From an uncultured Bacillaceae bacterium (GTDB lineage Bacteria > Bacillota > Bacilli > Bacillales > Amphibacillaceae): 64,000 bases of DNA. Shown here in pieces: positions 2,274 to 64,000 of the stretch. The position numbers and the translations under genes are program-made. The first letter of the stretch is position 1. Each line of letters opens with the position of its first letter. The notes beneath the pieces are model-generated. The model saw only the letters and a list, made by a program, of their open reading frames with translations, made no database searches and had not been told where the DNA came from. Where the stretch lies: contig CALAMD010000055.1 in NCBI GenBank assembly GCA_937925695.1, positions 116,681-180,680 of the forward strand. Reading direction: 5' to 3'.

Positions 2274-3065
2274 ATGACAGAGGGGTATGAGCAGTTTAAA
2301 ATAAAAATAAAAAACAAACTTGGTATTGATTTAAATCTATATAAAGAAGCACAGATGAAAAGAAGAATCACTTCGCTAAAAACGAAACGTGGTTTTAAGC
2401 ACTTTGCAGATTATTACCAAGCCCTTGAAGAAAATCAAGATTTGCTAACGGAGTTTATTGATCGCTTAACAATTAATGTCTCTGAATTTTATCGCAACCC
2501 TAAACGCTGGGAAGTTTTTAGAAAAAAAGTCATACCATTTTTGATCCAAGAAAAGGAAGGATTAAATATTTGGAGTGCCGCTTGTTCAACTGGTGAAGAA
2601 CCTTATACAATTGCTATGATTATGGAGGAATATTTTCCACAAATAAAGTACCGCATATTGGCAACTGATATTGATGAAAAGGTATTAGCTAAGGCTAAAA
2701 TTGGTATTTATCATGGACAATCCTTAAAGGCACTTCCGAAAAATTTATTACATAAATATTTTACGAAAAAAGATGGGCTATTTTATCTTGATTTAGCCCT
2801 TAAAGAATCTATCACATTTAATCGACATGATCTGTTAGCAGATAAATATCCTAACAATATAGATCTCATTGTTTGTCGAAATGTATTAATTTATTTTACT
2901 GATGTAGCAAAAGACATTATTTATCGAAATTTTAGCCAATCTTTAACAGATGATGGCATTTTATTTGTTGGCAGTACAGAACAAATCTTTACGCCTCAAG
3001 ACTATCATTTAACCGTTTTCGATACATTCTTTTATCAAAAAATGTCGAAAAATGCTGTCAATTAA
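2274..3065 (+). CDS. cheR: Chemotaxis protein-glutamate methyltransferase
   Basis: INVSEFYR, WSAACSTGEEPY, CRNVLIYF; synteny. Confidence 0.96.
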   Translation: MTEGYEQFKIKIKNKLGIDLNLYKEAQMKRRITSLKTKRGFKHFADYYQALEENQDLLTEFIDRLTINVSEFYRNPKRWEVFRKKVIPFLIQEKEGLNIWSAACSTGEEPYTIAMIMEEYFPQIKYRILATDIDEKVLAKAKIGIYHGQSLKALPKNLLHKYFTKKDGLFYLDLALKESITFNRHDLLADKYPNNIDLIVCRNVLIYFTDVAKDIIYRNFSQSLTDDGILFVGSTEQIFTPQDYHLTVFDTFFYQKMSKNAVN

Positions 3066-3103
3066 TAATATCTGATTGCTAATTTAAGAGATTTGCCTCG
3101 TTT

Positions 3104-3150
3104 AAAATAATACTCTTTGTTTTACAAACAAGAGTGTTATTTTTATTTTT
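3104..3150 (+). terminator. Probable intrinsic terminator after cheR
   Basis: Inverted repeat AAAATAATACTCTT...AAGAGTGTTATTTT followed by T tract. Confidence 0.6.
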
Positions 3151-3174
3151 AATCTACCAAAAACATTTAATCCA

Positions 3175-3203
3175 TTGCAAAATCATTCATTTACACTTAT
3201 AAT
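3175..3203 (+). promoter_or_regulatory. SigA-type promoter of the aro operon
   Basis: TTGCAA (3175-3180), 17 bp, TATAAT (3198-3203). Confidence 0.7.
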
Positions 3204-3288
3204 TATAAGTTATATTTTATATGCATAAATATTTTGAAATATGAGTCATTGATAATGGTACTCACATTGATTATACGTAAATGGAGGA

Positions 3289-4461
3289 ATGATCATGCGT
3301 TATTTAACAGCTGGTGAATCACATGGTAAACAATTAACGACAATTATTGAAGGTGTTCCTGCTCGGATGCCGTTACTGAAAGAAGACATTGACGAATCAT
3401 TACTGCGCAGACAAAAGGGGTATGGGCGTGGTCGACGCATGCAAATTGAAAAAGATCTAGTTGAAATTATGAGTGGGGTTCGCCATGGCTATACATTAGG
3501 TTCGCCAATATCTTTAGTTGTACATAATGATGATTTTAAAGCCTGGACAAAAATTATGGGCGAGGAACCAATCGATGAAGATGAGAAAATTCGTCGTGTG
3601 GTTACTAGACCAAGACCAGGTCATGCTGATTTAAATGGTGCGTTAAAATATGGTCATCGTGATATGCGAAATGTGTTAGAAAGATCATCTGCCCGGGAAA
3701 CTACTGCCCGTGTAGCTGCTGGTGCTGTCGCCAAAATTTTATTAAGACATTTAGGCATTGAAGTAGTTGGTTATGTAAAAGAAATTGCCGGTATTCGAGC
3801 CGATGATGACTTAACATTAACGATGAAAGAACGTCAAGATATATCCGAAGCATCACCTGTGAGAACATTGGACAAAAACGTTGAACAACAAATGATGGAT
3901 GCCATTGATCAGGCAAAAGCAGATGGTGATTCTATTGGTGGAGTTGTCGAAGTATATGTTGAAGGCATGCCAGCTGGAGTCGGATCATATGTACACTATG
4001 ATCGCAAATTAGATGGCCGGATTGCAGGAGCTGTTATGAGTATTAATGCCTTTAAAGGTGTTGAATTTGGTATTGGCTTTGAGGCTGCTCGTAAGCCTGG
4101 TAGTGAAGTACATGATGAAATTGCTTGGAATGAAGAACAAGGTTATTATCGTAAATCGAATCGCCTCGGTGGTTTTGAAGGTGGAATGACAAATGGAATG
4201 CCAATTGTTGTCAAAGGCGTGATGAAACCAATTCCAACCCTTTATAAACCATTGCAAAGTGTTGACATTGAAACGAAAGAACCATTCAATGCCAGTATCG
4301 AACGTTCGGATTCATGTGCAGTACCAGCCGCTGCCGTAGTCATGGAACACGTTGTCGCCTTTGAATTAGCAAAAGCCATAACAGAACAGTTTTCAAGTGA
4401 CCAGTTTCCGCAATTGAAAAAAGCAGTTGATCAATATCGTGAAGAAATTAGGTTGTTTTAA
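3289..4461 (+). CDS. aroC: Chorismate synthase (B. subtilis aroF)
   Basis: [37 protein letters not shown]. Confidence 0.97.
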
Positions 4462-37674: not shown

Positions 37675-38082
37675 CTTGAATACTCACATAATCGCTGCAT
37701 CTATTTAGGATGTAGAGGAAAGTCCATGCTCACACAAGCTGAGATGCTTGTAGTGTTCATGCTTGACGAAATCATAAGTCAAGGTAACCTTTTTTAAAGG
37801 TTAACGGCAGGGTAAAGTCCTACGTCACAATTGTGATATGGACTGATGCCCTATAAAGTGCCACAGAGACGAGTCAGGGTGGAAACATCCTGGGTGGAAC
37901 GGGTAAACCCCATGAGTGAGCAACCCAAACAATGGTAGGGGCACCTTCGATTAGGGAAATGAACCGAAAGAAGGACAAGTATCAAAGCCTGATACTTGTA
38001 GATAGATGATTATGACCGGCGTACGAGGCTGACCACCGTTTGTAGTACTAAGGTACAGAACATGGCTTATCGAGTATTCAAG
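37675..38082 (+). ncRNA. rnpB: RNase P RNA, type B
   Basis: GAGGAAAGTCCATGCTC, AAAGTGCCACAG, GGTAAACCCC, ACAGAACATGGCTTA; P1 helix CTTGAATACTC/GAGTATTCAAG; between gpsB and ypsC; TGnTATAAT upstream. Confidence 0.97.
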
Positions 38083-47403: not shown

Positions 47404-47417
47404 CGAACACGTGTTCT
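47404..47417. promoter_or_regulatory. LexA (Cheo/SOS) box inside the promoter of the yolD-like gene
   Basis: CGAACACGTGTTCT lies between minus-strand TTGACA (47421-47426) and TATAAT (47396-47401). Confidence 0.9.
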
Positions 47418-55172: not shown

Positions 55173-55224
55173 TAAAATATGGTCTATTCAACTTGTAATG
55201 AAAAATGAATAGACCATATTTTAT
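55172..55224. terminator. Bidirectional terminator
   Basis: ATAAAATATGGTCTATTCA/TGAATAGACCATATTTTAT 19-bp stem. Confidence 0.75.
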
Positions 55225-55386
55225 CAATATCAGTGAATATTAGCGAAAATATCAAGTAATTAAGAGGAACTTAAATGGAAGGGATGAAAATATGCTCATA
55301 ATAAAAATTCATCTATAGATTCCTATAATAAATATTATGTCAATCTGAGGATTAAAAAAAATAAAGCTGTTAAGCTTTATGGCTTT

Positions 55387-56180
55387 TTATTTTTCTTCTA
55401 ATTGTTCCATGGATAGTTTTTCTTGCATAAATATATTGTACTTTCTCATTAAATACAATCCTTTATTTTTATATAGCCAATTAGAGAATTGTTTAAGAGT
55501 TTTCCTGCCACTTACATAAACGCGAAAATCTGTTTTATAATCAACAAATTTAGTTTTGAAACCTGCATTCTCTATATGATCCCTCAATGTAAGCATAAAC
55601 TGTTTAGAACCTCCAACGATATTTACAAAATATTTTTCGTATTTTACATGTCCATCACCATCAAAATATCCTCTTATAAAATGACTCAAATATTGCTTCG
55701 GAACTTGTGGGAATTTTATCTGACGGGCTTTATTTGGCATCAGATCATATAACGTAATTAAATCTGTACGCATAATTTTACTGTTTATATTTAATATATA
55801 TACGCCAGTATCTTTGTTTTGAATTATTGGATGATTTGATTGCATTTCATCACGAATGTTTTCTAAAATTCCCTTTTCTTTTTGCGAAAAGCTAATAATT
55901 TGTGCATCACGTGCGACCATACCATCTGCAAAAAAGAATCCGAGTATATATGCCATATTATTTGACCACGTTTTAAAATAATCTTCATTAACCGAATATT
56001 TTCTTTTCCAGCTGCCATGTGGTCTAAGCATAACATTATTTTTATTTAATAACATCCGTACATATCTTGCAGAAACATTAGCTTTTACACCGATTTCTTC
56101 TGTACTTAAGCCTTGCTCATATAAAAGTCTATGATTGTTTGTGTACTTAGCGTTCTTTTTCTACGTTTATCATTACCCAA
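55387..56180 (-). pseudogene. Free-standing HTH plus double-motif LAGLIDADG endonuclease-like gene, frameshifted near codon 19
   Basis: Motifs AYILGFFFADG and HFIRGYFDGDG. SD GGAGGTG (56187-56193) and TTG 56180 give MGNDKRRKRTLSTQTIID, which continues as LYEQGLSTEEIGVKANVSARYVR only after a frame change at the T4 run (56123-56126). Confidence 0.8.
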
Positions 56181-56205
56181 TAATAACACCTCCAATAATT
56201 AACCA

Positions 56206-56234
56206 GGAACATATGTTCTTAACTAATTGTATCA
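56206..56234 (-). promoter_or_regulatory. LexA box at the predicted start site of an extended -10 promoter for the LAGLIDADG gene
   Basis: Perfect GAACATATGTTC (56207-56218); minus-strand TGATACAAT (56226-56234). Confidence 0.85.
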
Positions 56235-56334
56235 TAATGATTCTTATCGTGTTGATTATAATTTTCTATTTTTTGTGTGTTGAATATCGTGAAAATTGAG
56301 ATTTGAATGTTACAATGGAAAAAATTCTTATATG

Positions 56335-56830: not shown

Positions 56831-56945
56831 ATGAATAAAAGTGTCCTATAGGACCCTTTATTGAAGTCCTATTTTTTTATGAAAAAACGTCCTATAGGAC
56901 CCCTTGTATTAATTTTTCTTAAACAAAAAGTTTCCTGTAGAATCC
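56831..56945. repeat. Short degenerate array of GTCCTATAGGAC palindromes
   Basis: Exact copies at 56843-56854 and 56889-56900, half copy GTCCTAT at 56866, degenerate TTCCTGTAGAAT at 56932. Confidence 0.75.
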
Positions 56946-63739: not shown

Positions 63740-63860
63740 TGAAAGACCACCCATGCGGGAAACATGGATGGTCAGCGTGATTAGCCCTTCAAAGGGGCGA
63801 CTCGCTAATAAAGTGGCATAACCACCCTTTTCGCTCGTCAGGCTCAGGGGTGGTTATTTT
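63740..63860 (+). ncRNA. Putative antisense antitoxin RNA (SR4/SR5/RatA-like)
   Basis: TATAAT at 63728-63733; hairpin GACCACCCATG/CATGGATGGTC, a second hairpin with core GCCCTT/AGGGGC, and terminator ATAACCACCC/GGGTGGTTAT-TTT overlapping the toxin stop codon. Confidence 0.7.
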
Positions 63861-63931
63861 CGTTCTGACAGCATGGCCACGATTAATGCTGCAAATGTGA
63901 GCATAATCATCAATGACTCAAAAACTGTCAT
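63854..63931 (-). CDS. Type I toxin, BsrE/BsrG-like (putative holin-like toxin), 25 aa MTVFESLMIMLTFAALIVAMLSERK
   Basis: SD AAAGGAGGTG; single TM helix with basic tail; N-terminus like BsrG MTVYESLMIM; too short for the ORF track. Confidence 0.85.
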   Translation of the reverse strand: MTVFESLMIMLTFAALIVAMLSERK

Positions 63932-64000
63932 TGGCATCACCTCCTTTCCCAACAAAGGAAAGAAAGCGAGCCACCACCCATGAAAGCCCTATCACACAAT

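Follow-up and report, generated by a model that had tools for sequence, protein, structure and literature searches.

Homing endonucleases are usually seen as passengers of introns or inteins, or as phage genes, without dedicated host regulation. The enzymes I-DmoI, I-Tsp061I and PI-PfuI, for instance, are single-chain proteins with two LAGLIDADG domains per chain and an acidic residue ending each motif helix, and their genes reside in archaeal introns or inteins. Here, we analyzed a 64-kb stretch of contig CALAMD010000055.1 from an uncultured Bacillaceae bacterium (hereafter the window, meaning this whole stretch), whose sequence reads on the minus strand as a helix-turn-helix (HTH) gene with two LAGLIDADG_3 motifs, running from a TTG start at 56180 to a stop at 55387. 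In contrast to the archaeal genes, it is free-standing on a bacterial chromosome, and the family to which it belongs adds an N-terminal HTH, a promoter of its own with a predicted LexA box, and a position beside dif. The reading that we favor, with moderate confidence, is that the locus is a LexA-gated, free-standing, single-chain homing-type endonuclease gene with an N-terminal HTH, anchored at dif; for the family, the best explanation is an old Bacillaceae clade anchored on the XerD-arm side of dif and repressed by LexA.

Several other described systems resemble this locus in part. Both WhiA and the yeast HO endonuclease have the LAGLIDADG fold fused to extra DNA-binding domains. HO is also free-standing and regulated in its expression, as is predicted here, but it is intein-derived and is under cell-cycle rather than SOS control. 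In WhiA and in intron maturases, the catalytic residues have been lost, and the HTH of WhiA is C-terminal, whereas the window family keeps its aspartates and has its HTH at the N-terminus; nor is the WhiA-like combination of residue loss, C-terminal HTH and universal vertical conservation seen in this family, which is dispensable and patchy. An HTH and LAGLIDADG architecture shared over almost the entire protein, with 26-30% identity, is found in phage HTH-LAGLIDADG endonucleases, such as ORF036 of Bacillus phage 0305phi8-36 (a 'mobile intron protein') and proteins of Staphylococcus Kayvirus and Brevibacillus phages; however, these are phage-borne and often annotated as intron- or intein-encoded, whereas the Bacillaceae clade is chromosomal and more than 50% identical internally. 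We know of no LexA box or dif context for the phage enzymes. Integron integrases, colicin operons and SOS-induced integrative and conjugative elements are under LexA control. The LexA-controlled phage GIL01 of B. thuringiensis (PMC4551915) is likewise a selfish or optional element timed by the host SOS repressor, but neither it nor any of the former is a homing endonuclease gene. The closest case in print is the recA intein of M. tuberculosis, a homing endonuclease that is linked to SOS through its host gene only (PMC11377839). The seg and mob genes of phage T4, which practice intronless homing, and F-CphI of a cyanophage, which serves the collaborative homing of a psbA intron (reviewed in PMC3984707), are also stand-alone genes with promoters of their own located beside highly conserved DNA, but they reside in phages, mostly encode GIY-YIG or HNH enzymes and are not LexA-regulated. 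Finally, a fixed position and orientation next to dif is known for the minimal Xer-dependent integrative elements (IMEXs, i.e., CTX and TLC phages) and for the IS1202-family insertion sequences, the latter located 5 bp from the XerC arm of dif (PMC10132070); those elements use XerCD or a transposase, whereas the sole gene here is a LAGLIDADG nuclease. In the full-text literature, with most subscription journals outside coverage, we found no paper linking LAGLIDADG or homing endonucleases to LexA/SOS operators or to dif, and no dif-adjacent chromosomal free-standing homing endonuclease, in agreement with the initial annotation of this DNA, made from the sequence alone, which knew of no SOS-controlled LAGLIDADG member. 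The present analysis adds a family-wide census of LexA operators, the two promoter layouts in which they occur, the statistics of gene decay, and a second LexA-boxed family beside the flagellin intron.

The expression signals of the nuclease gene place a perfect GAACATATGTTC palindrome between an extended -10 element and the ribosome-binding site (RBS), as follows.

56226..56255, minus strand: promoter, with a TCAACA -35-like element (56255-56250), an 18-nucleotide (nt) spacer and the extended -10 element TGATACAAT (56234-56226); from a consensus scan and the sequence
56207..56218, no strand assigned: predicted LexA operator (Cheo box) GAACATATGTTC, beginning 8 nt past the -10 element, at about +1; from the sequence and its conservation in homologs
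56189..56193, minus strand: RBS GGAGG, 8 nt ahead of the TTG start codon (56180-56178); from the sequence

The initial annotation had described a Shine-Dalgarno sequence, an extended -10 element and a perfect GAAC-N4-GTTC core where transcription should start, and all three were recovered at these positions. Since promoter-like matches in the AT-rich upstream stretch are no more frequent than expected by chance, we assigned the promoter at 56226-56255 by its position and by the promoters of homologs rather than by the scan alone. All bases but one of this stretch are the same in the contigs that carry intact alleles of the gene.

A single box of this kind is weak evidence, because the core motif is not rare: it occurs twice in the 64-kb window against 0.46 expected, and 19 times in the 2.15-Mb draft genome against about 25 expected from the base composition. 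Such counts would be compatible with an incidental LexA-like box and a gene that is constitutive or silent. However, the comparative data make this hardly credible, and turn the weak evidence into strong evidence. We took 80 homolog loci from species-representative genomes, 69 of them from Bacillaceae, and counted boxes in the 150 nt upstream of the gene, using the remainder of the same loci as the background. Upstream of the 69 Bacillaceae genes there are 44 perfect GAAC-N4-GTTC boxes and 71 boxes with at most one mismatch, while the background is 0.006 and 0.045 boxes per 150 nt, respectively. A Cheo box with at most one mismatch is thereby present in 66 of the 69 loci, representing more than 20 genera, the perfect boxes being enriched about 100-fold; the enrichment upstream of homologs that had been named beforehand as a check on the initial annotation is thus borne out. 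Moreover, the box is likewise found in each of 12 additional loci from the taxonomic family of the window. It forms the sole conserved island in otherwise unalignable upstream DNA (consensus AGAACaTaTGTTCg), and those positions of it that were not used for finding it also fit the B. subtilis-type operator. No such box was found upstream of the distant homologs outside Bacillaceae, and none of the relatives lacking the nuclease gene has a perfect box beside dif.

The boxes occur in two promoter layouts. In 47 loci, covering most genera, the box lies directly before the TATAAT element (GTTCgTATAAT), while in 12 loci, namely, those of the Oceanobacillus/Virgibacillus group together with the window, the -10 element precedes the box, which then lies over the start site. 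The operator has thus been kept while the promoter around it was rebuilt, which argues for selection on LexA control. The host has the matching repressor, a LexA of 207 aa with LexA_DNA_bind and Peptidase_S24 domains, whose gene has a perfect box 120 nt upstream, and the same perfect core as that of the nuclease gene precedes the host parE and a yolD-like gene. We therefore infer that the nuclease gene is probably repressed by LexA and inducible by DNA damage. The yolD-like gene, a typical SOS translesion-polymerase accessory gene, lies in the window itself: it encodes 115 aa on the minus strand, 29 nt downstream of the other perfect Cheo core of the window, GAACACGTGTTC at 47405-47416.

The most informative feature of the locus is its adjacency to dif, which was absent from the initial annotation. 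We scanned every locus with the experimentally defined dif sequence of B. subtilis (PMC3025954), and identified the following site in the window.

55318..55345, plus strand: chromosomal dif, GATTCCTATAATAAATATTATGTCAATC, located 41 nt from the stop codon of the nuclease gene and with its XerD-type arm on the side of this gene

The 22-nt core of this site is identical to that of the dif-like site in the Oceanobacillus loci, the site is the unique best match in the genome, and the maximum of the cumulative GC skew of the 184-kb contig is only about 2 kb away; we therefore consider it to be the genuine dif of the terminus. In each homolog locus, a single dif-like site closely follows the nuclease gene, and it is without exception the XerD-type arm that faces the 3' end of this gene. 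The distance from the end of the open reading frame (ORF) to the site is 15-365 nt in 47 loci, with an overall median of about 100, and about 10 more loci have a weaker dif match 23-166 nt from the ORF. Layout and orientation are the same in about 60 of 70 homolog loci. Even two Omnitrophota homologs of 34-36% identity show this layout and orientation, the dif-like site being 4 and 39 nt away from the end of the gene, and in complete chromosomes of the B. cereus group (5.2-5.4 Mb) the gene is located at about 2.5-2.7 Mb. In same-genus relatives that lack the gene, dif still lies directly past the same gene for a Rieske-FAD (flavin adenine dinucleotide) oxidoreductase. Other neighbors are shared within family-level groups only, namely, this oxidoreductase and a GT4 glycosyltransferase in Oceanobacillus, Virgibacillus and Halobacillus, and an MBL-fold (metallo-beta-lactamase) protein and DUF1963 in the B. 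cereus group. Accordingly, we take dif to be the real anchor of the gene, and we rejected the gene neighborhood as a clue to function, since it has no functional link to the nuclease.

A gene with so fixed a position and orientation beside dif, and with no integrase gene, might also be the cargo of an IMEX, that is, of an approximately 1-kb cassette that enters dif via XerCD rather than through its own nuclease; elements targeting dif are known, among them the IMEXs and the IS1202 family (PMC10132070, PMC9226527). We consider this very improbable. An IMEX cassette would be bounded by a second dif-like site, but in the 650 nt upstream of the gene, on the promoter side, the best matches to dif have 9-13 mismatches, the same as in control windows, so that the hallmark of such an element is missing; furthermore, cargo of this kind would leave unexplained why it is constantly a catalytically intact LAGLIDADG protein.

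Two other sequence features near dif were noted. In most Bacillaceae loci, a conserved hairpin, GTCTCAAT-(loop with AAGTAWACT)-ATTGAGAC, follows the XerC-type arm of dif at a distance of about 20 nt (e.g., L033:4920-4965 and L110:1445-1480), whether the nuclease gene is present or not; it matches no Rfam family, and the window genome has only a diverged version at 55180-55225, about 110 nt from dif. In addition, two perfect GTCCTATAGGAC palindromes (56843-56854 and 56889-56900), which have TCCTATA in common with the XerC-type arm of dif, are located upstream of the nuclease promoter, within 860 nt of non-coding DNA. We rejected these palindromes as a family feature, because they are found in contigs of this species only and not in other homolog loci.

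The gene product belongs to the LAGLIDADG_3 family (PF14528), which matches two stretches of the second reading frame (see below) with an E-value of 1.2e-11 and 45.1 bits against a cutoff of 22.5. Both motifs, ...ILGFFFADG and ...IRGYFDGDG, are evident in the translation, and their acidic residues are intact, as the initial annotation had stated. The only NCBIfam matches are to models of intein-bearing archaeal IF-2 and RNA polymerase. An AlphaFold2 (AF2) model of the intact allele, built from an alignment with 26 homologs, has a predicted local distance difference test score (pLDDT) of 90 and comprises a three-helix N-terminal HTH (residues 13-46), as had been predicted once the frameshift was bridged, followed by two alpha-beta-beta-alpha-beta-beta-alpha domains in a single chain. 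The top Foldseek structures for this model are the TliVMA intein endonuclease, I-Tsp061I, PI-PfuI and I-DmoI, with a probability of 1.0 to 7qsu, 2dch, 1dq3 and I-DmoI. There are more than 345 homologs, mostly 50-65% identical and nearly all from Bacillaceae in the broad sense, which the databases name 'LAGLIDADG family homing endonuclease'; many of them additionally have a C-terminal HTH.

These extra HTH domains, a match to LAGLIDADG_WhiA (PF14527) that is below threshold (21.2 bits against a cutoff of 23.2) and the presence of the WhiA structures 3hyi and 3hyj among the Foldseek matches would be in line with a non-cutting DNA binder, either a WhiA-like regulator or a Xer accessory factor, that acts near dif or elsewhere during SOS. 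However, the active endonucleases are the better fold matches, ranking above both WhiA structures, and the residues that catalysis would need are retained: D85 (...FFFADG) is conserved in all 116 homologs examined and D175 (...YFDGDG) in 114 of them, both being placed at helix ends in the AF2 model, while K100 and K150 are conserved in 116 of 116 and Q99 is also essentially invariant. Since the catalytic aspartates and Q99, K100 and K150 hardly vary, an active enzyme rather than a WhiA-like binder is to be expected from the conserved residue pattern, and we consider the non-cutting alternative improbable.

The copy in the window is broken near its 5' end, as shown by the following features.

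56106..56180, minus strand: first reading frame of the broken gene, with the TTG start, 24 codons (MGNDKRRKRTLSTQTIIDFYMSKA) and then TAA (56108-56106); from translation
56123..56126, minus strand: frameshift, a run of four T instead of two in intact alleles (TT insertion); from DNA alignment with contigs L084-L086
55387..56127, minus strand: second reading frame, 246 codons to TAA (55389-55387), encoding the remaining HTH (helices as far as about residue 46) plus the two LAGLIDADG domains; from translation (P0001)
55354..55389, minus strand: weak, AU-rich terminator-like hairpin, AUAAAGCU-UAAC-AGCUUUAU followed by U8; RNA folding energy -8.5 kcal/mol, z = -3.0

The first frame corresponds to residues 1-18 of the intact allele P0002, a 263-aa protein (N-terminus ...TIIDLYEQGLSTEE...) that is encoded by three metagenome contigs. 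These contigs are almost identical to the window across the promoter and the aligned 5' part of the gene, aside from the TT insertion, the frameshift site reading GACTTTTATATGAG in the window and GACTTATATGAG in all three of them. The frameshift is thus present in this assembly as a real sequence difference from intact alleles, and since these differ solely in lacking the TT insertion, we ruled out a programmed frameshift. The window copy would then be either a very recent pseudogene or an assembly error. A stricter terminator scan made no call on the hairpin at 55354-55389. No intron model matched anywhere in the window, and no interrupted host ORF was seen around the nuclease gene, which has its own promoter, RBS and terminator; we therefore regard it as free-standing. 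In this respect too the initial annotation stands, both for the window and for the homologs, which do not consistently lie within introns or inteins.

The above results suggest how such a gene might work. In undamaged cells, LexA would bind the Cheo box overlapping the promoter and block RNA polymerase. Upon DNA damage, and probably in competence too, RecA on single-stranded DNA would trigger the self-cleavage of LexA, and the nuclease would be made; competent cells of B. subtilis are also SOS-induced. The LAGLIDADG saddle and the HTH would then bind and cut a long asymmetric target, D85 and D175 holding the metal ions, and this target may lie in or next to the dif of chromosomes that lack the gene. 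If the cut were repaired with a copy that has the gene as the template, the gene would be spread or retained, as in intronless homing, and under LexA control cutting would be limited to cells in which RecA is abundant, division is blocked and the chromosome is present in several copies. A short and unique site such as dif, conserved throughout the group, would be an ideal address for homing. LexA binding and induction, the activity and target of the nuclease, and homing itself are all steps that we propose from the comparative evidence.

The distribution of the gene is patchy. Within the window's taxonomic family it is present in 31 of 201 genomes and 11 of 57 genera, at least 11 of the 31 matches being fragments or having several stops, and it was not found in any of the eight other genomes from the window's genus, though several of these are incomplete. 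In the genus of the B. cereus group, 50 of 71 species representatives have a match, about 30 of full length and about 20 fragmented or interrupted. Homolog searches returned no B. subtilis copy, though this species itself was not searched directly. Plasmids harbor only distant relatives, with 23-30% identity. A fixed, conserved site beside dif, patchy presence and many fragments or pseudogenes are the marks of a selfish gene. The initial annotation had left open whether this would be a domesticated SOS effector or a selfish endonuclease timed to RecA-high conditions; the anchoring at dif and the patchy, decaying distribution tilt the balance toward the selfish branch, while the domesticated branch stays as a rival.

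Domestication would mean that an SOS-induced cut, nick or tight binding beside dif is kept by the host: damage raises the number of RecA-driven crossovers and hence of chromosome dimers, and the protein would help to resolve, process or restart the terminus alongside XerCD and topoisomerase IV. The LexA operator conserved through two promoter layouts, the fixed orientation to the XerD arm, and the LexA box of parE, whose product acts at the terminus, in the same genome all fit this idea, as do the selection on intact copies and the shape of the protein tree. The dN/dS ratio (nonsynonymous to synonymous substitution rates) is 0.09-0.46 in 12 close pairs of intact copies, indicating purifying selection, and the protein tree mostly follows genera, requiring 22 label changes where the minimum is 17 and shuffling gives 32, and is thus largely congruent with taxonomy. 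On the other hand, a host function accords poorly with a gene that is missing from about 85% of the genomes of the same family and from all eight other genomes of the same genus, that is frequently a pseudogene, the window copy included, that has no co-occurring partner or pathway genes, and whose closest relatives outside the clade are mobile phage endonucleases, several of them annotated as intron- or intein-borne. We therefore consider domestication unlikely, though it is the main rival.

Some of our results also weigh against a LexA-gated homing endonuclease anchored at dif. The tree congruence and the low dN/dS ratios fit long vertical inheritance better than frequent invasion. The distance from stop codon to dif varies from 15 to 365 nt, so that there is no fixed insertion junction, and no dif-arm variants specific to carrier genomes were obvious by eye among the loci in hand. 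The losses that could be resolved are deletions and not clean empty sites, and the sole copy in the window's own genome is broken. Furthermore, since dif cannot be disrupted, a nuclease aimed at it would threaten its own chromosome.

Three candidates for a naive site or a recent insertion were considered and rejected. In the non-carrier G224 of the B. cereus group (locus L145), a deletion reaching from the RBS to shortly beyond the stop codon has removed the ORF, while the LexA-boxed promoter was kept; this is thus not a naive empty site. On the reverse strand of this locus (2655-3810), the leftover promoter and RBS now abut a 332-aa ORF that belongs to no Pfam family, the counterpart of whose sequence lies 3' of the nuclease gene in carriers such as L043. 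The c24/c25 ORFs that some strains of this group have between the gene and dif were likewise dismissed as a dif-proximal insertion, because it is by deletion that they are removed in short-variant strains. As for an empty-site comparison within the genus, the relatives are too diverged, the neighboring gene having 63% amino-acid identity and the far side no synteny, and the one thing to emerge from the comparison was that dif remains in place behind the Rieske gene.

The selfish reading of the dif-anchored gene gains a further sign from a second family. In the window's own genome (G000), contig C60 (1-2420; L114/L115) encodes a 580-aa protein with two LAGLIDADG_2 units and a C-terminal HTH, and its promoter, TTGACA-GAACACTAGTTC, has a perfect Cheo box in the spacer. 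Single-unit homologs of about 300 aa occur in 33 of 301 Bacillales genomes. Among the homolog loci of this family (L116-L144), 21 of 29 have a Cheo box upstream, 15 of them perfect, against a background of 0.003 per 270 nt. Next to these genes, in tail-to-tail arrangement, is a group I intron (Rfam RF00028, 69-90 bits) breaking the 3' end of the flagellin gene, an intron already known from thermophilic Bacillus species (PMC3984707). By analogy, this is the layout of collaborative homing, with a free-standing endonuclease beside the intron that splits its presumed target, exactly as in the cyanophage case. The second family is plainly part of a mobile system, and it is unrelated to the dif-anchored family. 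Since both have conserved predicted boxes, LexA control appears to have been acquired separately by two unrelated LAGLIDADG families.

Thus, two unrelated chromosomal LAGLIDADG families of Bacillales have conserved predicted LexA operators, and one of them is fixed at dif, the one short sequence that no chromosome can do without. Were the enzyme to recognize dif or its flank, this would explain how a selfish nuclease persists without an intron across genera and apparently phyla. A nuclease would then be added to the Bacillus SOS regulon, which has been studied mostly in B. subtilis, and the family would be a source of natural meganucleases that have additional HTH modules and whose target region is defined and found universally. 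A bolder possibility, which we regard as rather doubtful, is that under SOS the nuclease targets the dif or terminus of the very cell that makes it, so that damage signaling would be wired directly to dimer resolution or terminus recombination and a homing endonuclease would have given rise to a host function. In broader terms, chromosomal homing endonucleases of Bacillales may be LexA-gated as a rule, such gating having been taken up at least twice, in the dif-anchored family and in the flagellin-intron family.

Three minor observations concern neighboring genes and RNAs. In the B. cereus group (L020:463-2064 and equivalents), a dnaN paralog of 376 aa with all three beta-clamp domains is located about 2 kb upstream of the nuclease gene, and since a perfect GAACAATCGTTC lies just before it, this paralog is possibly a further terminus-proximal gene under SOS control. 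In the window itself, Rfam matches include, at its end (63748-63996, minus strand), a BsrG-type RNA with 64.5 bits that belongs to a type I toxin-antitoxin region, and RNase P class B at 37680-38074 on the plus strand.

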